NCBI GenBank assembly: GCA_000146045.2
Contig: BK006941.2
Location: 640,001-704,000, forward strand
Reading direction: 5' to 3'
Source of the DNA: TPA_inf: Saccharomyces
Lineage: Eukaryota
Length of the DNA stretch: 64,000 nt
The notes under the pieces are model-generated. The model was not told where the DNA came from. It worked only from the letters and a program-made list of their open reading frames with translations, and made no database searches. Positions 8,383-61,048 of this stretch are shown here, piece by piece. Within the stretch, counting starts at the first letter, position 1. Each line of letters opens with the position of its first letter. The position numbers and the translations under genes are program-made.

Positions 8383-8907
8383 TTATTTATCGAGCACATC
8401 AGCGTCGTACTTTTGCTTGAACCAAGAGACGGTGTCTTCCTTAGTTGTCTTGTGGGAGTTACCAACAGTACCCTTACATCTCTTTCTTCTAGTGACTCTA
8501 GCACCTGGTCTGTTCATGACGACATAGAAATCCATACCGAAAATACCGATGGATGGGTCATACTTGATACCCAAGTCAATGTGTTCGTCAATACCGAAAC
8601 CGAAGTTACCGGTAGCAGAGAAGTTTCTGTCTCTCAATTGGTATTCCTTGACCTTCAAACCTCTTTCCAAAATTTCTTCAGCCTTTGGACCTCTGACGGT
8701 AACGTGAACAGCAATTTTTTCGTTTCTTCTGATACCGAAAGTTCTGACAGTGTATCTGGCCTTGGATTGAACTGGAGTTTGACCAGATAATTGTTCTAAA
8801 ACCTTGGAGGCTCTGGTTAATCTGTCACCAGATTCACCAACGGAGATGTTCAAGACCAATTTCTCGATCTTCAAATCACGCATAGGGTTTTGGGCTTTAG
8901 TAGACAT
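8383..8907 (-). CDS. RPL11B: Ribosomal protein L11 (uL5), 174 aa
   Basis: The track ORF begins at a TTG at 8943. The real ATG is the CAT at 8905-8907 and gives [40 protein letters not shown]..., an exact L11 signature. Tandem Rap1-like sites lie upstream. It is called RPL11B because it sits next to PIL1 and PDC6. Confidence 0.95.
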
Positions 8908-9134
8908 CTTGGACGCGTATTTTTGTATATGTTGGGCTTTCAAGGGTAACTGATGCTAAACGTTATAATACACGAAATGAATGCCTCTCTTAACAGTATA
9001 CTTCTTTAATGATGAGTTATGTCCAAGTTTCAATTTGGTATCCTAGCTTCGCTATTCGCAGAGCGGGTTCCAAAAGATCTTCGGATAAAAATAAAAAGAA
9101 GGCGGTGAAAACAAAAAGAATATTAAAAAAAGTA

Positions 9135-9161
9135 ATGTATGGGTTCTCGTTGTACGGATGT
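9135..9161 (-). promoter_or_regulatory. Two adjacent Rap1-like sites upstream of RPL11B
   Basis: On the minus strand, AACCCATACAT lies at 9135-9145 and ACATCCGTACA at 9151-9161. Both fit the ACAYCCRTACAY consensus. They sit about 230-255 bp upstream of the RPL11B ATG, the typical ribosomal-protein promoter architecture. Confidence 0.65.
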
Positions 9162-9597: not shown

Positions 9598-10617
9598 TTA
9601 AGCTGTTGTTTGTTGGGGAAGAGACTCACTTTGCTGGTGTCCGACTTGTTCATGTTCTTCAACAGCACCTTCTTCTTCTTGTTCAGGTTCTTCAATTTGT
9701 CCATCTTCTTGTTCGTCTTCGGACCACCTGCCTTGACCGTCTTCCTCTTCCTCTTCTTCGCCTTCTTCAGGTTCGAAGTCTTCGTAATCCTGCTTGAAAC
9801 TTAAAGTAGGCTTGACTTGGGCAGAGTCTAGTGTCCATTCATTCAGTGCGCTTTCAGCATCAATAATGATTTGTTTAGAGGCTTCATACCCATCGTAAGC
9901 AGGCCTGGTTTCACCTGGAGTGACAGGAGAGTCGTCCAATAGTTCCAAGAGAGCCTTACCGTAACCAGCGATTAAAGCAATTTTCTCTGAATGTTCGATG
10001 ATGGAGTCAAATTGGTAGTTGAAAGCAGCTCTCAACTTTGACCTTGTGATATTAGATAATTGAGCTTCAGCGACCAAAGATTCAGCCTCAGCACGCACCA
10101 ATTCTTGTTCCAAGACCTCAATCTTAGGTGATTGAGGATCTTTGTATTTCAAGTAGGCGATTTTGTCGGTGATCTTGTCCTTACGGTCTCTAGATGGTTG
10201 AACAGAACCTTCGATATCTCTGATGGACTTTAGAGTCAATCTGTATTGGTCATAACGATCGATAAATTGGTCGTCTAATTCACTAACTTCATAGATCAAG
10301 ACACCTAATTTATCAGTGATGTCGGAAACATCGTCATCGTTTTCCAACCCCCAAATAGACAATTGCTTAGCAGCGTCACGTCTTTCGTTGGCTGTCAATT
10401 CCATGGACCTCAAAACATTCTTTTCAATCTTAACCAATTGAGACAACTTTCTGGATAATTCTGGGCCAAAAGCTCCAGCAGCACTTCTCCTAAAGCTGTA
10501 AGCTAGACCACCCTTCCCAAAGAATCTACCTTTGGTTGTAGATGGTGGTGGCGGTGGGTTCTGTAATTGAGAGGCGGTAGGTGCCCTGGAATTTCTTAAA
10601 GAGTAAGTTCTGTGCAT
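9598..10617 (-). CDS. PIL1: Pil1 eisosome BAR-domain protein, 339 aa
   Basis: The minus-strand ORF starts at the CAT at 10615-10617. MHRTYSLRNSRAPTASQLQNPPPPPSTTKGRFFGKGGLAYSFRR... is recognisable as PIL1, and the C-terminal tail is acidic with an E-run. Confidence 0.95.
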   Translation of the reverse strand: MHRTYSLRNSRAPTASQLQNPPPPPSTTKGRFFGKGGLAYSFRRSAAGAFGPELSRKLSQLVKIEKNVLRSMELTANERRDAAKQLSIWGLENDDDVSDITDKLGVLIYEVSELDDQFIDRYDQYRLTLKSIRDIEGSVQPSRDRKDKITDKIAYLKYKDPQSPKIEVLEQELVRAEAESLVAEAQLSNITRSKLRAAFNYQFDSIIEHSEKIALIAGYGKALLELLDDSPVTPGETRPAYDGYEASKQIIIDAESALNEWTLDSAQVKPTLSFKQDYEDFEPEEGEEEEEEDGQGRWSEDEQEDGQIEEPEQEEEGAVEEHEQVGHQQSESLPQQTTA

Positions 10618-10814
10618 ACTATATACTTGATGCTGATATATTCTTCACTTTGCAATACTGCTAACAATGGAAAAGTATAGGTAAATAAATGTGCAGATGC
10701 AGATGTGAGACAAATTTTCTTTCTTGGGTTGGGATAATCAACGCATTGTACCCAAACGACGGGAAACAAGGAAGGATGCAGAATGAGCACTTGTTATTTA
10801 TAAAAAGACACGGG

Positions 10815-11075
10815 AGGGGGAATCCCGTCTTTCGTCCGTCGGAGCCAAAGAGATGAGCCAAAGCAGAAAAACAGGGGACGCCGCCCTTCTTCCGTCCCGT
10901 GCGTGAGGGGGGCGCGGCCATTCGGTTTTTGCAATATGACCTGTGGGCCAAAAATCGAAAAAAAAAAAAATAAGAGGCGGCTGCGGAATTTTATAAGACA
11001 AGCGCAGGGCCAAAGAAAAAATAATAATTGACGTGGCTGAACAACAGTCTCTCCCCACCCCTTTCCAAAAAGGGG
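10815..11075. promoter_or_regulatory. GC-rich island with five STRE cores upstream of PIL1 (AGGGG at 10815, 10873, 10906 and 11071; CCCCT at 11058)
   Basis: The motifs were read directly from the sequence. The region is 200-460 bp upstream of the minus-strand PIL1 ATG and is unusually GC-rich for yeast intergenic DNA. Confidence 0.5.
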
Positions 11076-11289: not shown

Positions 11290-12981
11290 TTATTGTTTGG
11301 CATTTGTAGCGGCAGTCAATTGCGCTTGTTTGATCAAACTTTCCGGAGCATCAAAGACGGGCAGTTTCAGTTCAATTAGTCTGATCACCGAGTTTTTCTG
11401 GAACTCTGAATCAGTGGTTAAGGCATCCCACTCACCCGTAGTGGCGATCTTGTGATTTTCGTACTTTTTCGCACCAAATGCGGGCAACAGGGCGAGGTGA
11501 TCCCAGGTCTGGATTTCGTTGTACTCTGCGTGAGGCCCATGAATCAGCTTTTCGATAGTGTAGCCGTCGTTGTTAAGGACAAAAAGATACGGCTTTAACC
11601 CCCATCTGATCATGGTGGAGATTTCTTGGACGGTTAACTGCAAAGACCCGTCACCTATGAATAAGATGACTCTCTTGTTGGGGTCAATCTCCTCAGCGGC
11701 AAAGGCAGCACCTAAAGTTGCTCCTGTTGTAAAACCGATGGACCCCCACAACACCTGCGAGATACCGTAGGCGTCCTTAGGAAAGATAGTTTGATTGATA
11801 CCGAAGGCAGACGTGCCGGTCTCGGAAATGATAACATCACCTTCTTGCAAGAATTTGGACAATTCGTTCCACAACCACTCTTGTTTCAAGGGCGTGCTAG
11901 CAGGTACACCTTTGTTTGCGGGAGTTTTGGTTGGTACGGGAACGCTCTTGTAGCCCTTAACAACATCGGGAATAACCTTCAGTAAGTTTTGTAGTGCAAA
12001 TTTCATTTGTACACCGAGGAACGTAGCGTTCTTCACCTTTACGTAATCGGAATGAAACTCCACTACATTTTTAGTCTTGTAGGAGTAGGAAAACGAACCT
12101 GTGTTAAAATCAGAGAGCAAAGCACCGACCGAAAGGATCAAATCAGCCGACTCAACGGCCTGTTTCACGTCTTGTTTGGACAGCGTTCCCACATAAACAC
12201 CGCCATATCTGGGATGCTGTTCATCTATTGACCCTTTACCTAGAGGTGTCACAAAAGCTGGGAATTGCGTCAAATCAATTAACTTCTGGGTTTCTTTTTT
12301 AACGTTGTGCCTAGAAGCACAGGCATCCGATAGTATAACAGGGTTTTTCGAATTCTGGATCAATTCTAGTACGGTATCAATAACTTCCTTTTCAGCTTCG
12401 GGATCGTTAGGTTTTAATGATAGATCAATCGGTTTTTCCAAAAGAGAACCAGGAACCTTTAGATCTACCAAATTCGCTGGCAACCCCAAGTAGCTAGGCC
12501 TTTGTGTTATAAATGTTGTCCTGATCAACCTATCGATTTCTGAAGGGGCTGTAGCAATGTCTGTAATCATTGATGTAGTTTCTGAGATATTGGCGGACAT
12601 TCTGTGAAAAACGGTAAAATCACCGTTACCCAAGGTATGATGCAACAACAATTGCTTAGCCTGAGCGGAGATAGAGGGGACACCAACAACATGCAGTACA
12701 CCGACGTGTTCTGCATACGATCCTGCAATACCATTCAAGGCGGATAATTCACCTACGCCAAAAGTAGTTACCAGCACAGATAAACCCTTGATGCGTGCGT
12801 AACCATCGGCGGCATAGGCGGCGTTCAGCTCATTTGCATTACCAGCCCATCTCAATCCATCTACCTCGTAAATCTTGTCCAATAGGGACAAGTTGAAGTC
12901 GCCTGGTAGCCCAAAAATGGTGTTAACATTAACTTGCTTCAATCTTTCAAATAAGTATTTTCCAAGAGTAATTTCAGACAT
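11290..12981 (-). CDS. PDC6: Pyruvate decarboxylase, minor isozyme Pdc6, 563 aa
   Basis: The minus-strand ORF starts at the CAT at 12979-12981. MSEITLGKYLFERLKQVNVNTIFGLPGDFNLSLLDKIYEVDGLRWAGN... matches PDC6 rather than PDC1 or PDC5: it has IFG, YEVDGLRW, and GLSVLVTT where PDC1 and PDC5 have GMSCIITT. The protein has a TPP-binding fold. Confidence 0.95.
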   Translation of the reverse strand: MSEITLGKYLFERLKQVNVNTIFGLPGDFNLSLLDKIYEVDGLRWAGNANELNAAYAADGYARIKGLSVLVTTFGVGELSALNGIAGSYAEHVGVLHVVGVPSISAQAKQLLLHHTLGNGDFTVFHRMSANISETTSMITDIATAPSEIDRLIRTTFITQRPSYLGLPANLVDLKVPGSLLEKPIDLSLKPNDPEAEKEVIDTVLELIQNSKNPVILSDACASRHNVKKETQKLIDLTQFPAFVTPLGKGSIDEQHPRYGGVYVGTLSKQDVKQAVESADLILSVGALLSDFNTGSFSYSYKTKNVVEFHSDYVKVKNATFLGVQMKFALQNLLKVIPDVVKGYKSVPVPTKTPANKGVPASTPLKQEWLWNELSKFLQEGDVIISETGTSAFGINQTIFPKDAYGISQVLWGSIGFTTGATLGAAFAAEEIDPNKRVILFIGDGSLQLTVQEISTMIRWGLKPYLFVLNNDGYTIEKLIHGPHAEYNEIQTWDHLALLPAFGAKKYENHKIATTGEWDALTTDSEFQKNSVIRLIELKLPVFDAPESLIKQAQLTAATNAKQ

Positions 12982-14042: not shown

Positions 14043-14275
14043 AGGGGTTGCAAGTCCGAGAACTAAACTGCCTTCACGACGTCAAACTTATTGTATGGTG
14101 ACAATAAAACGAATTCAAGAAGCCAGAGATGATGAGGAACCGATGACGAGGCACATGGGGATAGAACCTCCGTTATCTCCATTCCGCGTTGAGCAGCTCT
14201 CCTGCGTGCTTTCACAGAGACCCTAAGCCAAGACCGCGGACGGCCCTCTTTTTCAAGGGGATCACCGGTAAGGGG
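14043..14275. promoter_or_regulatory. Three STRE cores (AGGGG) upstream of CTT1, at 14043-14047, 14256-14260 and 14271-14275
   Basis: The motifs were read directly from the sequence. They lie at about -591, -378 and -363 relative to the CTT1 ATG. CTT1 is the classic Msn2/4 STRE-driven gene. Confidence 0.7.
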
Positions 14276-14633
14276 CCAAGCGGTGAAATTGCGTATTGTT
14301 TCCTCCTATCAATGATGAGTACGTCGCCGATCCAGAAGGGTTATTATTGTCATTGCCAGTACTATTCGTATGCTGAAAAAGTATAGTTCACTTCACCCTC
14401 TGGCTGCAGGCTAGCCTAGCCGATAATGCCCCCGACTCCCTCAACAGGTAGAATTTGTAAGGATTCGACGTAGCCTGGACACATTGTGCATTTATCGTAT
14501 CCCCTACTGCTACACGTATAAGAAGTCGTTGCTTTACCTCTATTCCAGAACTCAATCTTGTCGTTACTTGCCCTTATTAAAAAAATCCTTCTCTTGTCTC
14601 ATGCCAATAAGATCAATCAGCTCAGCTTCACAA

Positions 14634-16322
14634 ATGAACGTGTTCGGTAAAAAAGAAGAAAAGCAAGAAAAAGTTTACTCTCTACAAAACGGTTTTCCGT
14701 ACTCTCATCACCCATACGCTTCTCAATACTCAAGACCAGACGGCCCTATCTTACTGCAAGACTTCCATCTGCTGGAAAATATTGCAAGTTTCGATAGAGA
14801 AAGAGTTCCGGAGCGTGTAGTCCATGCCAAAGGTGGTGGTTGTAGACTGGAGTTCGAACTAACAGATTCTTTGAGTGATATTACATACGCCGCTCCATAC
14901 CAGAATGTGGGTTACAAATGTCCTGGTCTTGTTCGTTTTTCCACCGTTGGTGGTGAAAGTGGTACACCAGACACTGCAAGAGACCCAAGAGGTGTTTCTT
15001 TTAAATTCTATACCGAGTGGGGGAACCATGACTGGGTCTTCAACAATACTCCCGTCTTCTTCCTCAGAGACGCTATTAAGTTTCCCGTATTTATTCATTC
15101 GCAAAAGAGAGACCCTCAGTCTCATCTGAATCAGTTTCAGGACACTACCATATACTGGGATTATCTAACATTGAATCCGGAATCAATCCATCAAATAACT
15201 TACATGTTTGGTGATAGAGGTACTCCTGCTTCGTGGGCTAGTATGAACGCGTACTCTGGTCATTCCTTCATCATGGTCAACAAAGAAGGTAAGGACACAT
15301 ATGTGCAATTCCACGTCTTGTCGGATACTGGTTTTGAAACCTTGACTGGAGATAAGGCTGCTGAACTGTCAGGCTCCCACCCTGATTATAATCAGGCAAA
15401 GCTGTTCACTCAATTGCAAAATGGCGAAAAGCCAAAATTTAACTGTTATGTGCAAACAATGACACCCGAACAAGCAACTAAGTTCAGGTATTCGGTAAAT
15501 GACCTAACGAAAATATGGCCACACAAGGAATTCCCTTTGAGAAAATTTGGTACCATCACCCTAACGGAGAATGTTGACAATTATTTCCAAGAAATTGAAC
15601 AAGTTGCATTCAGTCCAACGAACACTTGTATCCCAGGTATTAAGCCTTCTAATGATTCCGTTCTACAAGCCAGACTTTTCTCCTATCCAGACACTCAACG
15701 TCATAGATTGGGAGCCAACTATCAGCAATTGCCCGTCAACAGACCAAGAAACTTGGGATGTCCATACTCCAAAGGTGATTCCCAATACACTGCCGAACAG
15801 TGTCCATTTAAAGCAGTGAACTTCCAAAGGGACGGCCCAATGAGTTACTACAATTTCGGTCCTGAGCCAAATTATATTTCCAGTTTACCAAATCAAACTC
15901 TGAAATTCAAAAATGAAGACAACGACGAAGTATCTGATAAGTTCAAAGGGATAGTTCTTGACGAAGTAACAGAAGTTTCTGTGAGAAAACAGGAACAAGA
16001 CCAAATCAGAAACGAGCATATTGTTGATGCCAAAATTAATCAATATTACTACGTTTATGGTATTAGTCCACTAGACTTCGAACAGCCAAGAGCTCTATAT
16101 GAAAAGGTATACAACGATGAACAGAAGAAATTATTCGTTCATAACGTTGTTTGCCACGCTTGTAAGATCAAAGATCCTAAAGTCAAAAAGAGAGTTACGC
16201 AATACTTTGGTTTGCTAAACGAAGATTTGGGTAAAGTCATTGCAGAATGCTTGGGAGTTCCTTGGGAACCTGTTGACCTTGAAGGTTATGCCAAGACTTG
16301 GTCCATTGCAAGTGCCAATTAA
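14634..16322 (+). CDS. CTT1: Cytosolic catalase T, 562 aa
   Basis: The track ORF begins at a TTG at 14484; the first ATG is at 14634 and gives 562 aa. MNVFGKKEEKQEKVYSLQNGFPYSHHPYASQYSRPDGPILLQDFHLLE... contains the catalase core motifs. Three AGGGG STREs lie upstream. Confidence 0.95.
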   Translation: MNVFGKKEEKQEKVYSLQNGFPYSHHPYASQYSRPDGPILLQDFHLLENIASFDRERVPERVVHAKGGGCRLEFELTDSLSDITYAAPYQNVGYKCPGLVRFSTVGGESGTPDTARDPRGVSFKFYTEWGNHDWVFNNTPVFFLRDAIKFPVFIHSQKRDPQSHLNQFQDTTIYWDYLTLNPESIHQITYMFGDRGTPASWASMNAYSGHSFIMVNKEGKDTYVQFHVLSDTGFETLTGDKAAELSGSHPDYNQAKLFTQLQNGEKPKFNCYVQTMTPEQATKFRYSVNDLTKIWPHKEFPLRKFGTITLTENVDNYFQEIEQVAFSPTNTCIPGIKPSNDSVLQARLFSYPDTQRHRLGANYQQLPVNRPRNLGCPYSKGDSQYTAEQCPFKAVNFQRDGPMSYYNFGPEPNYISSLPNQTLKFKNEDNDEVSDKFKGIVLDEVTEVSVRKQEQDQIRNEHIVDAKINQYYYVYGISPLDFEQPRALYEKVYNDEQKKLFVHNVVCHACKIKDPKVKKRVTQYFGLLNEDLGKVIAECLGVPWEPVDLEGYAKTWSIASAN

Positions 16323-16959
16323 GGCAGCACTATTTATTCATAATTATTCGTAATTATATCTCCATAATTATTTATTCATAAGTTTTCTTTAAGTTTATTC
16401 TCTACATCACTAGTTATTACAAATTGGTCGTATGTACAAGCACTAATATTTCATACTTATCGTACTTCATACATAGCAAATCCTGTTAGGAAAAATATGG
16501 CAGCAAAACAGATTGGCTGCCTACTTTTGACACATTTTTTTCTAATTCGGTACTTAGATCGGCATGAACTCAACGATTATCGCATTATACGGACAATCTG
16601 AAAAAAAAAAGTAGCCTAACTTATGCAGTTGTGTGTTTATAACGTTGAATTCCTAAACCTCTTGAAGGTGTAATATAACAAGTAACATAACTAGGTTTTC
16701 ACAACTCGTTAGTTTCTATTAAAAGAGGAATAAACAAATTTTATTAGGACTAAGAGGATTATACAGAGTACCAGCAGAGAAAACTTTAAATTCTTTCTGT
16801 TATAATAATATCTTACCAAAGTTTTTTGTTTTCTATCTCCACATTTTTCGTACCATCTCTTTAGGTAATCACTCTGAATAACTTTTATTCATATACACCC
16901 CAATATTTTTTAAGATTCCACCTATCTCCGTTACATAAAAGGATCCATGCACAATTTTC

Positions 16960-19770
16960 ATGGAGGAACAATTTACTAATCAGAAGAAAGTATCACATCT
17001 ACAGTCATTAATGAACACTAAAAGGAGTGAACAGCCCACCGAATTTGCCAAAAAACATAGGTTTAAAGATACGCTTGCATTGTTCCTGGTTTTTTTGAGT
17101 TTTAACCACTTCACTTCCCTATGTTTATTGGTTTCCTTTATTGTTGCTACCAAATGCAAAGATTTTCTGGCAAATTGTTTTATTATACTTTTCCTATCGA
17201 AAAAACCTTCCCGCCATATCGGTGAAGTGGCGCACATAGATATAAGTACTTCCAAAGTGACCAATGGTAGTTCAAACCGAAAATCTAATTCACGATTTTT
17301 TGGCAATTCAAAAAATAGCTTCGTCATTCCGATCCCCGTATTAATTTGTGAAATTTTATTTGCAATGTTACTAAAGATTTACGGTGGCGATTATTTTGTT
17401 AAGCCAATAAAAAATCTGGCAATTTCTATTATTGCCTCATTTTTGATCAATGATCCAAGCGATTGCTTAAGCTATGCAACTTCATGCTCAGTATTGTATG
17501 CTGTGTCAACTAACACTTTTCAAAGAGTGTCACACTTCTTTGACATTATACAGTTATTTGATATGTCTTTACGAGGAACCGGCCAATCAATTAAATTATT
17601 CACGGTTTTTCGCAAGTATTCACAGTTTTTCAAAAAGCTTTTCTCTCTATTTTTGCCAATGCCTTTCAAGATGCTTGGCAAACATTCAGACAGTATGATT
17701 TATTATCTATCCTTTCACATCCTTTTTTTCTCATTTGCTTCAAGTTTATTACACCCTCATAGACAAACAGCGGAAAACAAGCCATTGAAAAAGGGTTTCA
17801 ATTCAACTAAACCAGATGTAGCCCGTGTTCAAGGTCTGCAAAAGATGAGAATTTCTTCTTCTTCTTCCGTTTCTGCCGATTCGAACACTTTAGAGGACCA
17901 AAGTCCTATGATACCGAACGATCCAGGTGGACTTAGCAGCAGCAATCAAACTATCCATCCATCCCAACAAAATAACTCGCCAGTTCCCCTATCATCACAC
18001 AGTAATATTTTGAACCCTGCCGCCTCTTATCCTACTGATGCTACTTCTAGTTTTCCCTATTTCACTTCTATGGTCAAGGAATATAAGTCATATCAGCCAT
18101 CGGTAATCTCTGCTGAAGGAAGCAATTCTCAAGCCGTTACTACTACTACCAGTACAACAACCTCTCCTACAACGTTCAACTTTTCTGGTGATAACACTAG
18201 TTTGTCAAATGAAATCTCTCTATCTGATTCCTCGAATGGAAATTCGAAAAAGGATTCTGATTTCTTTTCCCCTTCCAATGACAAGTATACTAACCAACTG
18301 TTTGAACTGAATGTTGATTTTGGGAACATGTTTTCTTCTAGCAAATTATCTTCAGACATATCTGTTACATCAAACTTGGAAAATTTTATCCGTCTTCTAT
18401 TCAGAAGAAAGAATCAACACTTGATTGCACCTCTTTGGTCTATGGTAGTTACATTAAAAACAACGAATTTTGAAAAAAAATACTTACAAGAAACCTCTGA
18501 AAATTCACTAACACCAACAAATTCGAATACTTCATACGTCAGTAATCAGGAAAAACATGACAAAGATTTGGACACGATTAATACACATTCAGTTTCATCA
18601 AGAATTAGTTTCACCCATGCCGGAAAGTTTAAGAAGAGCGTGTTTAACAATTTCGAACCTTCAAATACTATGGCCCTGATTGCAAAGACAACATCTGATG
18701 ACTACAATCTTTTAAATTTAGTTTCCACCAATGAAAATATTTTCAATAGAAATGATAATGACTACAAAGTTTGCATTATTGATATTAGCACAAACTCTAT
18801 TACATTCCATATTGAAAATTTACATGATGGCGAACTCATTGTTTTAGTAAACGGTGTTATCTGGTCAGAAGTTTCTTGCGCTTTAATTTTAGAGCATGTA
18901 GGCGAAGAATACGTTGTCGTTAACGGATTAGTCCCTTCTTGTTCTTATGATATTCAATTCATCAACAGACTAAATCACCGAGATGATTATTTGGTTTCTG
19001 ATTTAATTGTAAGGACTTGTGGGAATAACAATGCGATTGCCGGAAAATTTGAAAACCTTGATTTCAGCTTCCCTTCATACTACCATAGGAAATTCTTATC
19101 TCCGTTGCTAACTCTGAAGCATTCCGTGCTAACTACAAACGCAAATTTGTCCGATGAAAGGACAAAATTGAAAAAGACAAAAAAGGAATTCAGCAAGAAG
19201 TTAAGTCTTTTGAGACAAGAAATTGATTATTTTAAAGGCAGGATTTCACAGAACGCAACACATGACGAAAAGAGCACTTTAAAAGTCGAAAATTTGAAGG
19301 TTGCCCTACAGCAAAGTGAGACTGCGGTAAATAAGTTAGAGATGCAATTGAAAACTCTCACTGAAAAAGAGCTTGAATTAGAAGAGGAATACTTGAAAAA
19401 GAAAGATCTACACTTGAAAAATCAATTAGAGTTCAGTAAGTTAGAAGAAAGCTTATCGAAAGACCTGAAAAACTCAGAAGGGAGGTTCCAAAAGGTCAAT
19501 CAAGAATTAGTTCAACTAGGCTCTAAACTGGACAAATTGAACGCGAGAAACGAGAAGTTACAAAAGGAGGTCGATCAGAACGCAGAAGAGATAGAAAAGT
19601 TCAGTACTCAATTTTTGAGTAAAAGAGAAAAGGATAGATTTAGAAGAAAGGAGTACAGGATACGCGAAGCCAATAAATTTGAATTGACTATAAAGGGGTT
19701 AGAGCAAGATATCAACAGATTAGAAAATGAGAATGAAAATATACATAGTCTAATTGGTAATAGTTACTGA
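16960..19770 (+). CDS. NNF2: Nnf2, 936-aa protein with an N-terminal hydrophobic region and C-terminal coiled coil
   Basis: The ATG is at 16960 and the ORF is 936 aa, at the YGR089W position. The Ser/Thr/Asn-rich middle and the KLKKTKKEFSKKLSLLRQEIDYFKG coiled-coil tail are consistent with NNF2. The call rests mainly on position and length. Confidence 0.75.
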   Translation: MEEQFTNQKKVSHLQSLMNTKRSEQPTEFAKKHRFKDTLALFLVFLSFNHFTSLCLLVSFIVATKCKDFLANCFIILFLSKKPSRHIGEVAHIDISTSKVTNGSSNRKSNSRFFGNSKNSFVIPIPVLICEILFAMLLKIYGGDYFVKPIKNLAISIIASFLINDPSDCLSYATSCSVLYAVSTNTFQRVSHFFDIIQLFDMSLRGTGQSIKLFTVFRKYSQFFKKLFSLFLPMPFKMLGKHSDSMIYYLSFHILFFSFASSLLHPHRQTAENKPLKKGFNSTKPDVARVQGLQKMRISSSSSVSADSNTLEDQSPMIPNDPGGLSSSNQTIHPSQQNNSPVPLSSHSNILNPAASYPTDATSSFPYFTSMVKEYKSYQPSVISAEGSNSQAVTTTTSTTTSPTTFNFSGDNTSLSNEISLSDSSNGNSKKDSDFFSPSNDKYTNQLFELNVDFGNMFSSSKLSSDISVTSNLENFIRLLFRRKNQHLIAPLWSMVVTLKTTNFEKKYLQETSENSLTPTNSNTSYVSNQEKHDKDLDTINTHSVSSRISFTHAGKFKKSVFNNFEPSNTMALIAKTTSDDYNLLNLVSTNENIFNRNDNDYKVCIIDISTNSITFHIENLHDGELIVLVNGVIWSEVSCALILEHVGEEYVVVNGLVPSCSYDIQFINRLNHRDDYLVSDLIVRTCGNNNAIAGKFENLDFSFPSYYHRKFLSPLLTLKHSVLTTNANLSDERTKLKKTKKEFSKKLSLLRQEIDYFKGRISQNATHDEKSTLKVENLKVALQQSETAVNKLEMQLKTLTEKELELEEEYLKKKDLHLKNQLEFSKLEESLSKDLKNSEGRFQKVNQELVQLGSKLDKLNARNEKLQKEVDQNAEEIEKFSTQFLSKREKDRFRRKEYRIREANKFELTIKGLEQDINRLENENENIHSLIGNSY

Positions 19771-19987
19771 TGGAAGATTAGAAAACAAAGATAGATAAGA
19801 ATTCGTTTTGTAGCATCCTAAAATTTACTTCTATTGAATATATACATGTATTTATTACTTGGACGTTCTACTTTAAATGTAGTCAGTCGTTTTTTTCTCG
19901 ATATTGTTTTTTTATTGTTTCCTAATAACTTCATTTGTTACTTTTTTGCCTTTTGTTATTTATGGAAATAATGCAGGTTAACATAAG

Positions 19988-19998
19988 TAAACATAAAA
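19988..19998 (-). promoter_or_regulatory. Candidate ARS consensus sequence: TTTTATGTTTA on the minus strand is an 11/11 match to the consensus, and a 16/17 match to the extended consensus ATATTTTATGTTTACTT
   Basis: The motif was read directly from the sequence. It is 220 bp past the NNF2 stop, inside the 2 kb gene-free interval. It is the only perfect consensus match I found among the intergenic regions I scanned by eye. Confidence 0.35.
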
Positions 19999-21748
19999 TA
20001 TGAGAAAAACTAAGAATGTTTGCTGATGTATTGAACAGTTCACATCGTTGTGTCTACTATTAACACTAAGTTGTTGATCAAAACATTCCCTAATTAATAG
20101 CTGCCCCAGGACTTGGAAGGCCACACTACTCTCCATGACATCAAAGATACGGCCCAAATAATCTGTATCCTCGATATGAACTTAGGACCACATATTTGGA
20201 GCTTGTCCAAAATACTAAAATGGCAGATAACAATTAGATGGTTCCAATTCAAATACATTACAAGCTACGAAAACTAATATTCTATAATTTATACTAAGTT
20301 CATGGAAAGAATTGCAATGGATTGAGGTTTCTAACGAGGTTATCACTACCGCAAATATAGAGAGTAAGTTGGTAATATACAACAATAGAATTTAATCAAT
20401 AACCAATCTCAACATTATTGTATCGTATTTTAACTTATAATTGTGCTCATATCAAGTTTTCTAGGTTACAATTACGACCAATTCTCAGGTTGTTTTGCAA
20501 AATTGGCGAAGAGATGGAGGCCTACCACATATTATCACGATTTGATAGGGATAATCTGAGTAACGATTAGTTATTGACGAATCCCTTTAATATAGTTTCC
20601 ACACGAGAATAGGCGCCTACTAAAGAATTGATGAATCTGCTGGTAATTTCTAGGTTTCCATTATTCGGTAAAATATACGGAATGTATTAGGGGTTCTTCA
20701 TGACGATCAAAGATCCATGAATGGAGATCGGTATTTTTAAGTAATAGTGCTACTATTTTTTTCCTTTTTGCATTCTGTCGTTCAATATCCTGTTACATTA
20801 TTAATCTTAGTTTCGGATTCCACTGAAATCAATAACTATATCCCATGGCTTGGGCCTTAATTCTTGTGTCATATACAATAATATGCTAGTGCCGTGAACA
20901 CTAGCCAATGAAGAAATGATCGTTTTCCAACACATACCGGACGTGGCTCTGATAGTGCTCGACGATGGAAATTTCAGCATGCATACTGATGTATGTCAAG
21001 ATAACAACTACAGTCCTATCGTCGTGATTATAGGGAATCGACCGCGCCACTGCTATGACAACGGAAAGTTTATCCATGGCCTGCTGATTTTGATGCTGCT
21101 GTGGACACGAGAATACCAACACCTGTTCACATCTTCATGTGGATGAACGTAACGAAGTGGATATTTAGGCTCGGTAGCGAATCTTTTGCCGTACCTCCAA
21201 ATTTATCTTGTATCGATTTTTCCGTCTAGTTGAAACTGTTATTATCCGCCCCTCCAATTTTCTGTAAAGCATAGGTGCTTCTTCAAAGTATCCAATGTAT
21301 TTCTTAAGCTTATCAAGAAATAACATACTTCGAATACGTCCCAAGTTTTCTGATAACTTTATCATATTCTTTTGGCTAATTGGCGATCGTTTATATACCC
21401 CAGTGATTTTGGTTATAAATTTATAATATAGTTCAAACTATCCTTCCTTTAGAACAACTGTAAGCTTTAATTTTGAGCAAGCGCTACCATTTGATATATA
21501 GCAAACTAACCAAAATGCTAAGACATCTTCTAGTCTAAAAGTAACTCTTTTTCTGTGTATCTAATTCACATTGTGAATTTGAAAAGTACCCTTATTTGTA
21601 TATATGTTGGTTTTGATGGTAGGTGACCTCACTTTTCTTTAGAAAATTTGCAATTATAGTTTTAGACAATCCCTTTATGTTTCATGTGCGTATTCATTAT
21701 TTTTAACAAATTCCTAGTTCTCAAATCTGAGTCTCTTGGTAAAAATTT

Positions 21749-21820
21749 GCCTCCTTAGCTTAGTGGTAGAGCGTTGCACTTGTAATGCAAAGGTCGTTAG
21801 TTCAATTCTGACAGGTGGCA
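21749..21820 (+). tRNA. tT(UGU)G1: tRNA-Thr, anticodon UGU, 72 nt, no intron
   Basis: I folded the cloverleaf by eye. The acceptor stem is GCCTCCT paired with AGGTGGC, with one U:U mismatch at the 4:69 position. The D-arm is GCTT/GAGC with a 7-nt loop. The anticodon stem is TTGCA/TGCAA with loop C-T-TGT-A-A. The T-arm is GTTAG-TTCAATT-CTGAC, and the discriminator is A. A T7 terminator follows at 21836-21843. Confidence 0.85.
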
Positions 21821-22357
21821 TAATTTTATATATCTCTTTTTTTGCTTGTTGTACGGAAGTTCTGTCCATCCGGTGGGCGACCGGTATAGAATTATCGCGC
21901 CATCCATGAAGGTTGGCCCAGGGCCGAGTAAAGATTTAGGCAGGACCGGTGGTGGCCACTGCCTGGGAACGTCGGCCTACGGCTCGCTGCATGCCGTTGA
22001 AAAATTTCAATTGTAATTTGGAAAATTTAACCAAATGATAATTTCAATATGTACCACTAGCACTTTACGTCAAGAATCTCAAGCAAACCAAAGGGTTTTA
22101 ATCTTATACTTTTCCATTCTATTTTTTAATAGAATTTAAATCGGCAGCTCTTATACTTGGAAACAGGACGTTTTCATTTTGCTTTTTTGAAGGCCAGATA
22201 TTTGCTTTCACTTTAAGAACCAACTCCAAGAAATCTTCAAAGTTTCCTTTGTTAGATTTATCCTCTGATTGAATTATTGAAACCACAGGTATAATCACTT
22301 TGGGGTAGAACATTATAGTTTTCATAGAAATTTTACAAAGGATCTCCTTCATATACC

Positions 22358-25300
22358 ATGGCTACAAGTGTTAAAAGAAAAGCATCTGAGACTTCTGACC
22401 AGAATATTGTTAAAGTGCAAAAGAAACATTCCACACAGGACAGCACAACTGACAACGGATCCAAAGAAAATGATCACAGTAGTCAAGCCATCAACGAGCG
22501 TACCGTGCCCGAGCAAGAAAACGACGAAAGCGATACTTCACCTGAAAGTAACGAGGTCGCTACTAACACTGCTGCGACTCGCCACAATGGAAAGGTTACT
22601 GCAACAGAGTCCTATGATATTCACATAGCTAGAGAAACGGCTGAATTATTCAAGTCTAATATTTTCAAGTTACAAATTGACGAATTACTGGAGCAAGTGA
22701 AGTTAAAACAAAAACATGTTCTGAAAGTCGAAAAATTTCTACACAAGTTATATGATATTCTCCAGGAAATTCCTGATTGGGAGGAAAAGTCATTAGCTGA
22801 AGTGGACTCCTTCTTCAAAAACAAGATTGTTTCTGTTCCATTTGTTGACCCCAAACCTATTCCTCAAAATACTAATTATAAATTCAATTACAAGAAACCA
22901 GACATCTCCTTAATTGGCTCCTTTGCTCTTAAAGCTGGAATTTATCAACCTAACGGCTCTTCCATTGATACTTTACTAACAATGCCAAAGGAGTTGTTCG
23001 AAAAAAAAGATTTCTTAAATTTCAGGTGCTTACACAAGAGGAGCGTTTATTTAGCATACCTAACCCACCACCTATTGATATTATTGAAAAAAGATAAATT
23101 AGACTCATTTTTGCAACTCGAGTATTCTTATTTTGATAATGATCCGCTTTTACCAATTTTAAGAATTAGTTGTTCCAAACCAACGGGTGATTCTCTTTCT
23201 GATTATAACTTTTACAAGACCAGATTCTCTATCAACTTGCTTATTGGTTTCCCATACAAAGTCTTTGAACCAAAAAAACTGTTACCCAATAGAAACTGTA
23301 TTAGAATAGCACAAGAAAGCAAAGAGCAATCTTTACCAGCCACTCCTCTTTACAATTTTTCAGTGTTATCTTCTTCAACACATGAAAACTACCTGAAGTA
23401 TTTATACAAGACGAAGAAACAAACAGAATCTTTTGTTGAAGCTACTGTTTTAGGTAGATTATGGCTGCAGCAACGTGGGTTTTCATCCAATATGTCGCAT
23501 TCTGGTTCATTGGGTGGATTCGGTACTTTTGAATTTACTATCTTGATGGCAGCGTTATTAAACGGTGGTGGTATAAATAGTAACAAGATATTACTTCACG
23601 GGTTTTCATCATACCAATTGTTTAAAGGTGTAATAAAATACTTAGCCACTATGGATTTGTGCCACGACGGCCATTTACAATTTCATTCTAATCCAGAGAA
23701 TTCCTCCAGTTCACCAGCTTCTAAATATATTGATGAGGGTTTCCAAACTCCAACCTTATTTGATAAGTCAACCAAGGTCAATATTCTTACAAAAATGACT
23801 GTTTCTTCTTATCAAATTTTGAAAGAATATGCCGGTGAAACATTGAGAATGCTAAACAACGTTGTTCAAGACCAATTCTCAAATATTTTTTTGACTAATA
23901 TTAGCCGTTTTGACAATTTGAAGTACGATCTGTGTTACGATGTACAGTTACCTTTGGGTAAGTACAATAATTTAGAAACTTCTTTAGCTGCTACATTTGG
24001 GTCAATGGAAAGAGTAAAATTTATTACTCTGGAGAATTTCCTCGCCCACAAGATTACAAATGTTGCAAGGTATGCATTGGGCGATAGAATCAAATATATC
24101 CAAATTGAAATGGTTGGTCAAAAGTCCGATTTTCCAATCACCAAAAGAAAAGTGTACTCTAACACAGGAGGTAACCATTTCAACTTTGATTTTGTAAGAG
24201 TAAAATTGATTGTTAACCCCTCTGAATGTGACAAATTAGTCACCAAGGGCCCTGCTCATTCTGAAACTATGTCTACAGAAGCAGCCGTTTTTAAGAATTT
24301 TTGGGGAATTAAATCTTCCTTAAGAAGATTCAAGGATGGCTCCATCACCCATTGTTGTGTTTGGTCTACATCCTCATCAGAGCCCATCATTTCCTCAATT
24401 GTTAACTTTGCATTGCAGAAACATGTTTCAAAAAAGGCACAAATATCAAATGAGACTATCAAGAAGTTTCATAATTTCCTACCGTTGCCAAACTTACCCT
24501 CAAGTGCTAAAACATCAGTTTTGAACTTGAGCAGCTTTTTCAACTTAAAGAAATCCTTTGACGATTTATACAAAATAATTTTCCAAATGAAGTTACCGCT
24601 TTCTGTAAAATCAATCTTACCGGTTGGCTCTGCATTTAGATACACTTCCTTATGCCAACCAGTACCATTCGCATACTCTGATCCAGATTTCTTTCAAGAC
24701 GTCATTTTGGAATTTGAAACCTCACCTAAATGGCCAGATGAAATTACTTCCTTAGAAAAGGCTAAAACAGCTTTTCTTCTCAAAATTCAAGAAGAATTAA
24801 GCGCTAACTCTTCAACTTATAGGTCGTTTTTCAGCAGAGATGAATCCATCCCATACAATTTAGAAATTGTAACCTTGAACATCTTGACACCTGAAGGTTA
24901 TGGATTCAAATTCAGAGTTCTAACTGAACGTGACGAAATCCTTTATTTAAGAGCTATAGCGAATGCTAGGAATGAGTTGAAACCAGAATTGGAGGCCACA
25001 TTCCTAAAATTTACTGCAAAATATCTGGCTTCCGTAAGACATACTCGTACTTTGGAGAATATATCTCATTCGTATCAATTCTACTCCCCTGTGGTAAGAC
25101 TATTCAAAAGATGGTTGGACACTCATTTATTACTAGGTCATATAACGGACGAATTAGCAGAGTTGATTGCCATTAAACCTTTTGTTGATCCTGCACCATA
25201 TTTCATTCCAGGTTCTCTTGAAAACGGTTTCCTCAAAGTGCTTAAGTTTATAAGTCAATGGAACTGGAAAGATGATCCATTGATTTTAGATCTAGTAAAA

Positions 25301-26071
25301 CCAGAAGATGATATAAGAGATACATTTGAAACAAGTATTGGAGCTGGCTCAGAGCTAGACTCCAAAACGATGAAAAAGCTTTCTGAAAGATTAACCCTAG
25401 CACAATATAAGGGCATTCAAATGAACTTCACGAACTTGAGGAACAGTGATCCCAACGGTACACATTTGCAATTTTTTGTTGCCTCTAAGAACGATCCAAG
25501 CGGTATTCTTTATTCATCAGGTATCCCACTACCCATTGCTACAAGGCTTACAGCATTAGCTAAAGTAGCCGTGAATCTTTTACAGACACACGGTTTAAAC
25601 CAGCAAACTATCAATCTTTTATTCACGCCTGGATTAAAAGATTACGATTTTGTCGTTGATTTGAGGACACCAATAGGTTTGAAATCATCCTGTGGTATAC
25701 TTTCAGCCACAGAGTTCAAGAATATAACTAACGATCAAGCCCCATCGAACTTTCCAGAGAATTTGAATGATTTAAGTGAAAAAATGGATCCAACATACCA
25801 GTTAGTGAAGTATTTGAACTTGAAGTACAAGAATAGTTTGATTTTATCAAGCCGCAAGTATATAGGTGTGAATGGTGGAGAGAAAGGAGATAAAAATGTC
25901 ATCACAGGGCTAATAAAGCCACTCTTCAAGGGAGCCCACAAATTTAGAGTAAACTTGGATTGCAACGTTAAACCAGTGGATGATGAGAATGTGATTTTAA
26001 ATAAAGAAGCCATATTTCATGAGATTGCTGCATTCGGGAATGACATGGTTATAAATTTTGAGACAGATTAG
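22358..26071 (+). CDS. UTP22: Utp22, SSU processome / UTP-C subunit, 1237 aa
   Basis: The ATG is at 22358 and the ORF is 1237 aa, matching YGR090W in position and length. An RRPE-like TGAAAAATTTC lies at 21997-22007 in the upstream region. Confidence 0.85.
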   Translation: MATSVKRKASETSDQNIVKVQKKHSTQDSTTDNGSKENDHSSQAINERTVPEQENDESDTSPESNEVATNTAATRHNGKVTATESYDIHIARETAELFKSNIFKLQIDELLEQVKLKQKHVLKVEKFLHKLYDILQEIPDWEEKSLAEVDSFFKNKIVSVPFVDPKPIPQNTNYKFNYKKPDISLIGSFALKAGIYQPNGSSIDTLLTMPKELFEKKDFLNFRCLHKRSVYLAYLTHHLLILLKKDKLDSFLQLEYSYFDNDPLLPILRISCSKPTGDSLSDYNFYKTRFSINLLIGFPYKVFEPKKLLPNRNCIRIAQESKEQSLPATPLYNFSVLSSSTHENYLKYLYKTKKQTESFVEATVLGRLWLQQRGFSSNMSHSGSLGGFGTFEFTILMAALLNGGGINSNKILLHGFSSYQLFKGVIKYLATMDLCHDGHLQFHSNPENSSSSPASKYIDEGFQTPTLFDKSTKVNILTKMTVSSYQILKEYAGETLRMLNNVVQDQFSNIFLTNISRFDNLKYDLCYDVQLPLGKYNNLETSLAATFGSMERVKFITLENFLAHKITNVARYALGDRIKYIQIEMVGQKSDFPITKRKVYSNTGGNHFNFDFVRVKLIVNPSECDKLVTKGPAHSETMSTEAAVFKNFWGIKSSLRRFKDGSITHCCVWSTSSSEPIISSIVNFALQKHVSKKAQISNETIKKFHNFLPLPNLPSSAKTSVLNLSSFFNLKKSFDDLYKIIFQMKLPLSVKSILPVGSAFRYTSLCQPVPFAYSDPDFFQDVILEFETSPKWPDEITSLEKAKTAFLLKIQEELSANSSTYRSFFSRDESIPYNLEIVTLNILTPEGYGFKFRVLTERDEILYLRAIANARNELKPELEATFLKFTAKYLASVRHTRTLENISHSYQFYSPVVRLFKRWLDTHLLLGHITDELAELIAIKPFVDPAPYFIPGSLENGFLKVLKFISQWNWKDDPLILDLVKPEDDIRDTFETSIGAGSELDSKTMKKLSERLTLAQYKGIQMNFTNLRNSDPNGTHLQFFVASKNDPSGILYSSGIPLPIATRLTALAKVAVNLLQTHGLNQQTINLLFTPGLKDYDFVVDLRTPIGLKSSCGILSATEFKNITNDQAPSNFPENLNDLSEKMDPTYQLVKYLNLKYKNSLILSSRKYIGVNGGEKGDKNVITGLIKPLFKGAHKFRVNLDCNVKPVDDENVILNKEAIFHEIAAFGNDMVINFETD

Positions 26072-60672: not shown

Positions 60673-60756
60673 TTGGTACTCTGGCCGAGTGGTCTAAGGC
60701 GTCAGGTCGAGGTCCTGATCTCTTCGGAGGCGCGGGTTCAAACCCCGCGGGTATCA
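60673..60756 (+). tRNA. tL(GAG)G: tRNA-Leu, anticodon GAG, 84 nt with a long variable arm, no intron
   Basis: The sequence begins GGTACTCTGGCCGAGTGGTCTAAGGCG. The anticodon stem-loop is TCAGG-TCGAGGT-CCTGA, giving anticodon GAG. The long extra arm is TCTCTTCGGAGGC. The T-arm is GCGGG-TTCAAAC-CCCGC. The acceptor 3' strand is GGGTATC with discriminator A, followed by a T-run. Confidence 0.85.
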
Positions 60757-60952
60757 ATATTTTTTTGAATCTACGCACTTCAATAAGAATTAGGCTGTTA
60801 GGATAGCATTTTTTTTCTATGTACCAAAAGTATTCATACGTGGCTCCTTGTTACCCCACAAAACTTTTTTAGACTTGAGTGAGCTGAAAGACACCTAAAA
60901 GGAAGGACATTCCATTGATGGCTATTGTAGCCAAAAAATTAAAAAAGAAGAA

Positions 60953-61048
60953 CTCCTCATAGGGGGCTCGAACCCCTGACATTTCGGTATCCTTGCTTAA
61001 GCAAATACGCTTAAAAGCCGAACGCTCTACCAACTGAGCTAACAAGGA
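60953..61048 (-). tRNA. tK(UUU): tRNA-Lys, anticodon UUU, 96 nt including a 23-nt intron (intron at + coordinates 60988-61010)
   Basis: The reverse complement reads TCCTTGTTAGCTCAGTTGGTAGAGCGTTCGGCTTTTAA, then the intron gcgtatttgcttaagcaaggata, then CCGAAATGTCAGGGGTTCGAGCCCCCTATGAGGAG. The anticodon loop is C-T-TTT-A-A, and the intron sits at the canonical position between nucleotides 37 and 38. An oligo-T terminator is on the minus strand at 60940-60950. Confidence 0.9.

Follow-up and report, generated by a model that had tools for sequence, protein, structure and literature searches.

Downstream of the tRNA-Thr(UGU) gene on chromosome VII of Saccharomyces cerevisiae lies a short stretch of G+C-rich DNA, and the question raised by this locus is whether that stretch encodes an RNA or serves as a site at which proteins assemble. 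A sequence-only reading had described it as a hairpin-rich block, and had offered two readings of it, as a strong platform for protein binding or as the source of a small non-coding RNA. Here, we analyzed the block within a window of 64,000 nucleotides of S. cerevisiae chrVII (offset 640,000; positions are those of the window unless given as chrVII) and compared it with the orthologous loci of other yeasts. The block is very probably the upstream activating region of UTP22, of the type found in Hmo1-enriched (category I) ribosomal protein (RP) gene promoters. The protein occupancy, the release of Ifh1, and the rapamycin response of the mRNA on which this conclusion rests were reported by others; the mapping of the primers, the motifs, the conservation, and the lack of RNA-gene features come from the present analysis.

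RESULTS

A G+C-rich block occupies the spacer between the tRNA-Thr gene and UTP22

The spacer from the tRNA-Thr gene to the start codon of UTP22 measures 536 bp and contains the block (Table 1). The name of the tRNA gene, tT(UGU)G1, and its position at chrVII 661749-661820 are given in the supplement of Parker et al. 2017. A block of roughly 150 bp and 60% GC directly after this gene had been claimed, and it is real: G+C content is 60.1% at 21851-21998 and 61.7% over the 133 bp at 21867-21999, compared to 37.8% for the whole window. The highest GC value of any 132-bp segment in all 64 kb, coding sequence included, falls within the block (0.621, with the 99.9th percentile at 0.583). The sequence quoted in the sequence-only reading corresponds to 21866-21999, and TTGAAAAATTTC lies directly 3' of it. 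The Pol III terminator of the tRNA gene had been placed at 21836-21843; the run of T residues is there, but it consists of seven T and starts one base further downstream. In the alignments, at least five T are also present at this position in the other four Saccharomyces species. The next T6 run 3' of the block, at about 22123, is not conserved in the alignments.

We considered whether the block could be a coding relic, given that six-frame translation left an open frame. No frame survives the 2-nt indel present in S. eubayanus and S. uvarum, which excludes a coding reading and agrees with the earlier statement that no ORF explains the block. Foreign or mobile DNA was rejected as well, with no match to plasmids or phages by blastn. 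The block is orthologous in all Saccharomyces species and is therefore not a recent insertion. A scan for LTR ends in the 2 kb preceding the tRNA gene gave no sign of a Ty LTR, and a repeat search within 19700-22400 returned only short matches of the kind that chance would give.

Table 1. Features of the NNF2-UTP22 interval, in window coordinates
Feature	Position	Strand	Basis and remarks
Nnf2 ORF	16960-19770		upstream neighbour
tRNA-Thr(UGU) gene tT(UGU)G1	21748-21821	+	ARAGORN and Rfam; upstream of the block; 95% invariant columns in five Saccharomyces species
T7 run, Pol III terminator of the tRNA-Thr gene	21837-21843	+	sequence and alignments
ChIP amplicon UTP22 Up1	21855-21951	unstranded	primers from the supplement of bioRxiv 10.1101/2021.01.04.425249
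G+C-rich block	21866-21999 (chrVII 661,866-661,999)	unstranded	about 61% GC; embeds the predicted IFHL motifs
CGCGC	21896-21900	unstranded	motif scan; in S. cerevisiae, S. arboricola and S. eubayanus only
Predicted IFHL motif 1, TAGGCAG	21937-21943	+	kept in 5/5 Saccharomyces species (TAGGCGG in S. uvarum)
(GGY)n repeat CCGGTGGTGGC	21946-21956	+	invariant in five species; between predicted IFHL motifs 1 and 2
Predicted IFHL motif 2, CAGGCAG (CTGCCTG on the + strand)	21959-21965	-	inverted relative to motif 1
Third, weaker IFHL-like site, TAGGCCG	21973-21979	-	fits the GGCNG core; inside conserved GTCGGCCTACGGCTC
RRPE-like or Sfp1-like element TGAAAAATTTC	21998-22008	+	invariant in five species
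Second A/T element GGAAAATTTAA	22020-22030	+	one change, in S. kudriavzevii
Segment with the two A/T elements	22000-22035		78% invariant columns in five Saccharomyces species
Rest of the promoter	22036-22357		45% invariant columns in five Saccharomyces species
UTP22 (YGR090W) ORF	22358-26071	+	100% identity to S. cerevisiae Utp22

Motifs in the block match the IFHL motif of RP gene promoters

Two heptamers in the 3' half of the block, TAGGCAG and CAGGCAG, match the IFHL motif and are predicted to be IFHL sites. The motif is known from RP gene promoters, where the IFHL core is GGCNG and the sites lie in G+C-rich DNA that mirrors the binding of Hmo1 and Fhl1/Ifh1/Sfp1 (Reja 2015, PMC4579351). 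An oligonucleotide with an IFHL site has the sequence CTCTAGGCAGAG, and the duplex used for measurements of Hmo1 binding is ACTACGCTCTAGGCAGAGTTCACC (PMC11430298). The two heptamers are 22 bp apart, centre to centre. Among the 11 YAGGCRG 7-mers in the 64-kb window, the only pair within 40 bp is that at 21937(+)/21959(-).

Relative to the UTP22 ATG, the two motifs are located at -421 and -399, and the corresponding motifs of most species fall between -215 and -430. IFHL motifs of RP genes are mostly found from -400 to -150 and are often duplicated (PMC2585575); of the two UTP22 motifs, one sits on the distal limit of this zone and the other slightly beyond it. The sites proposed for Hmo1 are the IFHL motif and GGY(n) repeats (Kasahara 2011, PMC3105432), and both are present here. 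According to the literature, one IFHL motif on its own adds little to the binding of Hmo1 or Fhl1, and which protein reads the motif directly is still debated. Downstream of the pair, the A/T elements resemble the RRPE (AAAAATTTT-like) at about -360 and -335 from the UTP22 ATG, and the sequence AAAAWTTTT has been tied to Sfp1 (PMC4579351).

Other readers of these sequences were considered and set aside. By eye, matches to Rim101 (GCCAAG), a Gal4-type CGG-N11-CCG at 21980-21996, and URS1 were not conserved in spacing or sequence. Mot3, whose motif is HAGGYA, suits TAGGCA but not the TAGGCG variants, and the literature was uninformative on this point; we preferred IFHL. In the 5' half of the block, the CGCGC at 21896-21900 is a putative match to the nucleosome-excluding motif of Rsc3.

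Published ChIP primers map onto the block

An IFHL site upstream of UTP22 was predicted by Kumar, Mashkoor, Balamurugan and Grove (bioRxiv 10.1101/2021.01.04.425249), who detected by ChIP Ifh1 near this site and Crf1 at it, as well as Hmo1 and Fhl1 signal at "the respective sites". The primers of that study place this evidence on the block. UTP22 Up1F and Up1R match exactly at 21855-21874(+) and 21932-21951(-), and the resulting amplicon lies in the block and ends on predicted IFHL motif 1; given that the study is a preprint using qPCR amplicons and fragments of about 300 bp, it resolves the block and its neighbours, including the tRNA gene, rather than individual bases. The study also used control amplicons, one of which lies far upstream, at 20502, and another within the ORF, at 23027. 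The expectation of a strong protein-binding platform is supported, with IFHL motifs in G+C-rich DNA and published ChIP primers that map onto it.

The same preprint followed the factors at UTP22 upon rapamycin treatment: Ifh1 was gone within 30 min, Crf1 increased, Hmo1 was gone by 2 h, and Fhl1 stayed (bioRxiv 10.1101/2021.01.04.425249). A response of UTP22 mRNA to rapamycin has been reported by others. According to a review from the same group, Fhl1-Ifh1 has very few targets outside the RP genes, HMO1, UTP22, and RRP7 among them, and their regulation differs from that of other ribosome-biogenesis (RiBi) genes (PMC8688861). According to a 2026 paper that cites it, the published version, Kumar et al. 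2024, has UTP22 as a Crf1 target.

A conserved core lies within an unevenly conserved spacer

Orthologous loci were fetched through the Utp22 and Nnf2 proteins in 12 yeasts including S. cerevisiae. The Saccharomyces species compared with it were S. eubayanus, S. arboricola, S. uvarum, and S. kudriavzevii; the other genera were represented by Nakaseomyces bracarensis, Kazachstania naganishii, K. africana, Torulaspora globosa, Zygosaccharomyces rouxii, Lachancea thermotolerans, and Vanderwaltozyma polyspora. Throughout Saccharomyces, the stretch from the tRNA gene to the ATG can be aligned, and its conservation is very uneven. The 3' half of the block (21935-21999) has 71% invariant columns across the five species, and the core formed by this half and the A/T elements (21935-22035) has 71-78%, compared to 31-45% in the flanks. 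The sequence-only reading had allowed that the block might simply be the upstream region of UTP22 with an unremarkable phylogenetic footprint; the first part of that statement is essentially right, and the second is not.

The 5' half (21867-21934) is G+C rich yet poorly conserved, with 31% invariant columns. High GC content that persists while the sequence drifts is what would be expected if the block were passively G+C-rich promoter DNA, favouring nucleosomes or a "fragile nucleosome" through its composition rather than its motifs. Kasahara 2011 speculates along similar lines that Hmo1 may recognise relatively high GC as such (PMC3105432). We give this explanation very little probability, given that composition alone predicts neither the invariance of the 3' half nor the recurrence of the same 7-mer across genera at a regular spacing, as described below.

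The motif cluster recurs in distant genera

The UTP22 upstream regions of the distant genera do not align with that of S. cerevisiae. Nevertheless, YAGGCRG or its complement CYGCCTR occurs upstream of UTP22 in 11 of the 12 yeasts, and in 10 its enrichment over shuffled sequence is significant (p<0.05). The species differ in how many copies they have and in how these are oriented and spaced: Z. rouxii has six copies in about 130 bp, T. globosa and V. polyspora have three each, K. naganishii and K. africana two each, and N. bracarensis one. Two of the copies in T. globosa form a perfect 9-bp palindromic hairpin. Such variation in the number, orientation, and spacing of one short motif points to a cluster of transcription factor sites and not to a conserved RNA fold. 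In most species, the cluster coincides with a local GC maximum; the two occur together in S. kudriavzevii, K. naganishii, T. globosa, Z. rouxii, and V. polyspora. Across five lineages and whatever the orientation, eight of ten close gaps between neighbouring motifs measure 19-24 bp (with a crude uniform null, the binomial P is about 1e-8). The RRPE-like A/T elements are conserved throughout the five Saccharomyces species, and most of the other yeasts examined have such elements as well. On the basis of these sequence comparisons, the IFHL cluster upstream of UTP22 is old and reaches across the Saccharomycetaceae sampled.

The tRNA-Thr(UGU) gene is also a long-standing neighbour, syntenic upstream of UTP22 in 10 of the 12 yeasts. 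Its 3' end lies 111-123 bp from the first IFHL motif in Saccharomyces and 119 bp from it in N. bracarensis, though the UTP22 ATG of the latter is 839 bp away. We considered, given this proximity, that the block might serve the tRNA gene rather than UTP22, as a chromatin boundary, an extra TFIIIC site, or a site of condensin or cohesin loading. This strikes us as very unlikely. K. naganishii has lost the tRNA gene and keeps a G+C-rich IFHL cluster, at -357 and -334 from UTP22, whereas L. thermotolerans keeps the tRNA gene and an RRPE with no IFHL motif upstream of UTP22; the coupling of the tRNA gene to the IFHL cluster is thus not obligatory. Moreover, the block contains no B-box-like sequence, and the factors reported at it are the RP-gene set.

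An RNA gene is not supported

A small non-coding RNA was the other explanation that the sequence-only reading had put forward. Such an RNA would be structured, encoded on the + strand, and transcribed either under a promoter of its own or as a read-through product of the tRNA gene, and we consider it highly improbable. Some of our results pointed toward it. The conservation of the core equals that of many RNA genes, and RNAalifold drew a long irregular + strand hairpin with several alternations of G.U with G-C or A-U between species. One stem position, read by eye, is A-U in S. cerevisiae, G-C in S. uvarum, and A.C in S. eubayanus; in the RNAalifold alignment, this position is gapped and scored as unpaired. 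Measured against 500 column shuffles, however, the real value was reached by 58 for paired cells, by 212 for pairs changed on both sides, and by 65 for the covariation score, which was 0.160 compared to 0.146 in the shuffles, a comparison of limited power with only five close species. The fold comparison across Saccharomyces that had been proposed therefore found a conserved sequence core and base-pair covariation no higher than in shuffles.

Folding of the single sequence gave a similar picture. On the + strand, the block did not fold better than dinucleotide shuffles, either by itself (z -0.43) or with its flanks (z -1.08), and the - strand folded modestly better than shuffles (z -2.2 to -2.6). 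In the UTP22 upstream regions of Z. rouxii and T. globosa, neither strand has a clear advantage in folding over the other, which is what an inverted repeat at the DNA level would be expected to produce. In these and the other distant genera, no fold is kept, and copies of the motif are all that the unalignable regions have in common with S. cerevisiae. The block had been called hairpin-rich, and the short hairpins do exist, even though the + strand has no fold beyond that of shuffles. The CCGGT..ACCGG hairpin at 21870-21884 is not conserved in the other Saccharomyces species; the CAGG..CCTG hairpin is conserved and is the inverted IFHL motif pair itself. The hairpins arise incidentally, from a single motif that is present in both orientations within G+C-rich DNA, where inverted copies pair with each other.

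Signals of transcription by Pol III were likewise absent. No B-box was found within two mismatches at 21822-22301, in agreement with the sequence-only reading, and a terminator scan found no terminator-like site in the block region. The conserved T7 terminator stands between the tRNA gene and the block. Rfam 15 returned nothing over 21822-22010, whether at gathering scores or at E<=10. In SNR52 and RPR1, which have tRNA-like leader promoters, and in plant dicistronic tRNA-snoRNA genes, a structured G+C-rich segment lies 3' of a tRNA-type promoter on the same strand. The block of UTP22 has only this layout in common with them; unlike them, it follows a strong and conserved T7, matches no RNA family, and has no significant fold, covariation, or downstream terminator.

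Named yeast ncRNAs were also considered, and literature on RUF20/RUF21 led only to Kavanaugh & Dietrich 2009. A literature search on YGR089W/YGR090W and on exact strings from the block found nothing relevant, and the table of the ncRNA deletion collection lists tT(UGU)G1 alone at chrVII 6617xx-6620xx. The Kavanaugh and Dietrich screen is said to have covered chromosome VI. Taken together, Rfam, folding, covariation, Pol III signals, and the distant genera do not support an RNA gene in the block.

Sites for Rap1 and PAC elements are absent

At category I RP promoters, Hmo1 and Fhl1 are considered to need Rap1 in order to bind strongly. With one mismatch allowed, the Rap1 site RMACCCANNCAYY had no match at 16258-22894, and the Rap1 cores ACCCANNCA and CAYCCRTRCA are absent from the NNF2-UTP22 spacer in 12 of 12 species. 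An RPL11B-like promoter within the window served as a positive control; it has tandem Rap1 sites near 9134-9160 and no G+C-rich IFHL block. The PAC element (GATGAG) was found on neither strand between the tRNA gene and the ATG in the five Saccharomyces species, so that the UTP22 region is not a canonical RiBi promoter.

DISCUSSION

Among known systems, the region upstream of UTP22 most invites comparison with the category I, or Hmo1-enriched, RP promoters (Knight 2014; Reja 2015). Both have IFHL motifs with a GGCNG core (TCTGCCTAG-like), often duplicated, within a broad G+C-rich region, the motifs of UTP22 being at about -400 from the ATG, and both have reported occupancy by Hmo1, Fhl1, Ifh1, and Crf1 with TORC1-dependent release of Ifh1. 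The likeness is not complete. Category I promoters usually have two upstream Rap1 sites, whereas UTP22 has none and a tRNA gene takes their place; UTP22 encodes a ribosome assembly factor instead of a ribosomal protein; and RRPE-like elements lie 3' of its IFHL cluster. At 61%, the GC content of the block also exceeds the average of 48.6% for Hmo1-enriched intervening regions, which itself compares to 36.1% for Hmo1-limited ones (Kasahara 2011, PMC3105432).

According to the literature, the promoters of HMO1 and RRP7 resemble that of UTP22: each has an IFHL site, predicted or confirmed, that lies several hundred bp upstream (about 605 bp in the case of HMO1), ChIP finds the same factors there, and rapamycin represses the genes. 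The HMO1 promoter differs in that it binds Tor1, which UTP22 does not, and has Reb1 sites. With the canonical RiBi promoters, in which PAC and RRPE are combined, UTP22 shares RRPE-like elements and its function as a RiBi gene, but not the PAC element, which is missing from its spacer in Saccharomyces.

We propose that the activating region of UTP22 is a broad G+C-rich stretch in which two IFHL motifs in opposite orientation flank a (GGY)n repeat and are joined by a weaker third site. Hmo1, an HMG-box protein, and Fhl1, a forkhead-like protein, would occupy the block, with Fhl1 carrying the co-activator Ifh1. Once TORC1 is inhibited, Ifh1 would leave, its paralogue Crf1 would accumulate, and UTP22 transcription would fall. 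Hmo1 may read the IFHL motifs and the GGY-rich DNA and help Fhl1 to bind, as has been proposed for RP genes; the assignment of particular bases to Hmo1 and Fhl1 is likewise tentative. The RRPE-like pair probably adds the usual ribosome-biogenesis input through Stb3 or Sfp1. Several observations weigh against this model: the missing Rap1 sites, the small contribution to binding that is credited to one IFHL motif, the coarse resolution of the ChIP data, and the lack of an IFHL motif in L. thermotolerans.

That UTP22, a non-RP gene, has an RP-gene-type activating region is already known and has been described as the IFHL region of the UTP22 promoter. Smaller points are possibly new, namely that no species examined has a Rap1 site in this spacer, that the upstream tRNA gene is conserved, and that the motifs are spaced by about 22 bp. 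These points allow a further reading, which we regard as unlikely although worth stating. The UTP22 region could be a Rap1-less RP-type promoter in which the constitutively nucleosome-free tRNA-Thr gene, bound by TFIIIC and TFIIIB, opens the chromatin for Hmo1 and Fhl1 and so takes on the pioneer role of Rap1, with an IFHL array phased at about two helical turns (19-24 bp). The absence of Rap1 sites, the syntenic tRNA gene, the constant distance from this gene to the IFHL motifs, and the regular spacing of the motifs are what led us to consider it. The order of tRNA-Thr gene, IFHL cluster, RRPE, and UTP22 is kept from Zygosaccharomyces and Torulaspora to Saccharomyces. If this reading were true, a Pol III gene would here contribute positively to the architecture of a Pol II promoter, in an arrangement that has been conserved.

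In summary, the upstream activating region proposed here for UTP22 illustrates that a G+C-rich, "hairpin-rich" block that catches the eye beside a Pol III gene can turn out to be a regulatory platform of the ordinary Pol II kind. UTP22 is one of the very few non-RP genes on the Fhl1/Ifh1 switch, and its product titrates Ifh1 off RP promoters. Given that Utp22 itself sequesters Ifh1 in the CURI complex (PMC8688861), Ifh1-dependent transcription of UTP22 would close a feedback loop between rRNA processing and RP transcription, and the block would be the physical site at which rRNA processing and RP synthesis are linked.

Results

The IFHL-like 7-mers upstream of UTP22 are regularly spaced, with 8 of the 10 close gaps between adjacent motifs measuring 19-24 bp centre to centre across five lineages. 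This spacing, which corresponds to approximately two helical turns, is independent of the orientation of the motifs. All 12 species compared lack a Rap1 site between NNF2 and UTP22 (window 19771-22357 and its orthologues in the fetched sequences L001-L012). In the place of a Rap1 site, 9 of the 12 species carry a syntenic tRNA-Thr(UGU) gene 56-210 bp 5' of the first IFHL motif; in Saccharomyces the two are 111-123 bp apart, and in N. bracarensis they are separated by 119 bp. More conserved elements, including a palindrome, are located 3' of the GC-rich block in the UTP22 promoter.

Features of the window and of orthologous NNF2-UTP22 loci (L007-L012, fetched sequences from other yeasts)
Feature	Position	Strand	Remarks
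Neighbouring IFHL-like 7-mers	window 21937/21959; L007 3644/3667; L008 3674-3738; L009 2613-2734; L012 641/664
Palindrome ATTCTATT..AATAGAAT	among elements at 22114-22139 / 22183-22212		UTP22 promoter
Stretch TTGAAGGCCAnATATTTGCTTTC	among elements at 22114-22139 / 22183-22212		UTP22 promoter; 73% invariant
Tandem Rap1 sites ACATCCGTACAAC + GAACCCATACATT	9134-9160	-	5' of RPL11B-like ORF 8383-8943(-)
GC-rich patch	10800-10960		between ORFs 9598-10617(-) and 11290-12981(-)
GC-rich patch	14145-14285		5' of ORF 14484-16322(+); holds AGGGG / CCCCT-type sequences
Intron-containing tRNA gene	60953-61048	-	Rfam, 52.9 bits; 24-nt insert after anticodon loop

The stretch from the tRNA gene to UTP22 aligns well with S. 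arboricola, S. eubayanus, and S. uvarum, unlike the NNF2-tRNA spacer (window 19771-21733, approximately 2 kb), for which blastn returned no alignment to these three species. In S. cerevisiae, this spacer is longer by approximately 1 kb and includes a stretch of 42-47% GC (approximately 20850-21200) with overlapping ORFs of 73 and 76 aa; a pattern search for Ty LTR ends in it was negative. The ChIP primer UTP22 Up2R (ATTGGCTAGTGTTACGGCA) of Kumar et al. (bioRxiv 10.1101/2021.01.04.425249) had no match in the window at ≤1 mismatch. Given that the genome at approximately 20880-20900 reads, by eye, TGCCGTGAACACTAGCCAAT, the primer as printed appears to lack one base.

Besides the block, the two GC-richest patches of the window (GC of 0.61 and 0.58, in table order) are each intergenic, and paired IFHL motifs were absent from both. 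Elsewhere, the intron-containing tRNA gene, which adjoins tRNA-Leu(GAG) (60674-60757, +), was not reported by ARAGORN even though it was matched by Rfam.

Discussion

The window also holds a second promoter with which that of UTP22 can be compared. The RPL11B-like promoter has tandem Rap1 sites and no GC-rich IFHL block, with a local GC of approximately 0.34, and represents a contrast case to UTP22 within one window.
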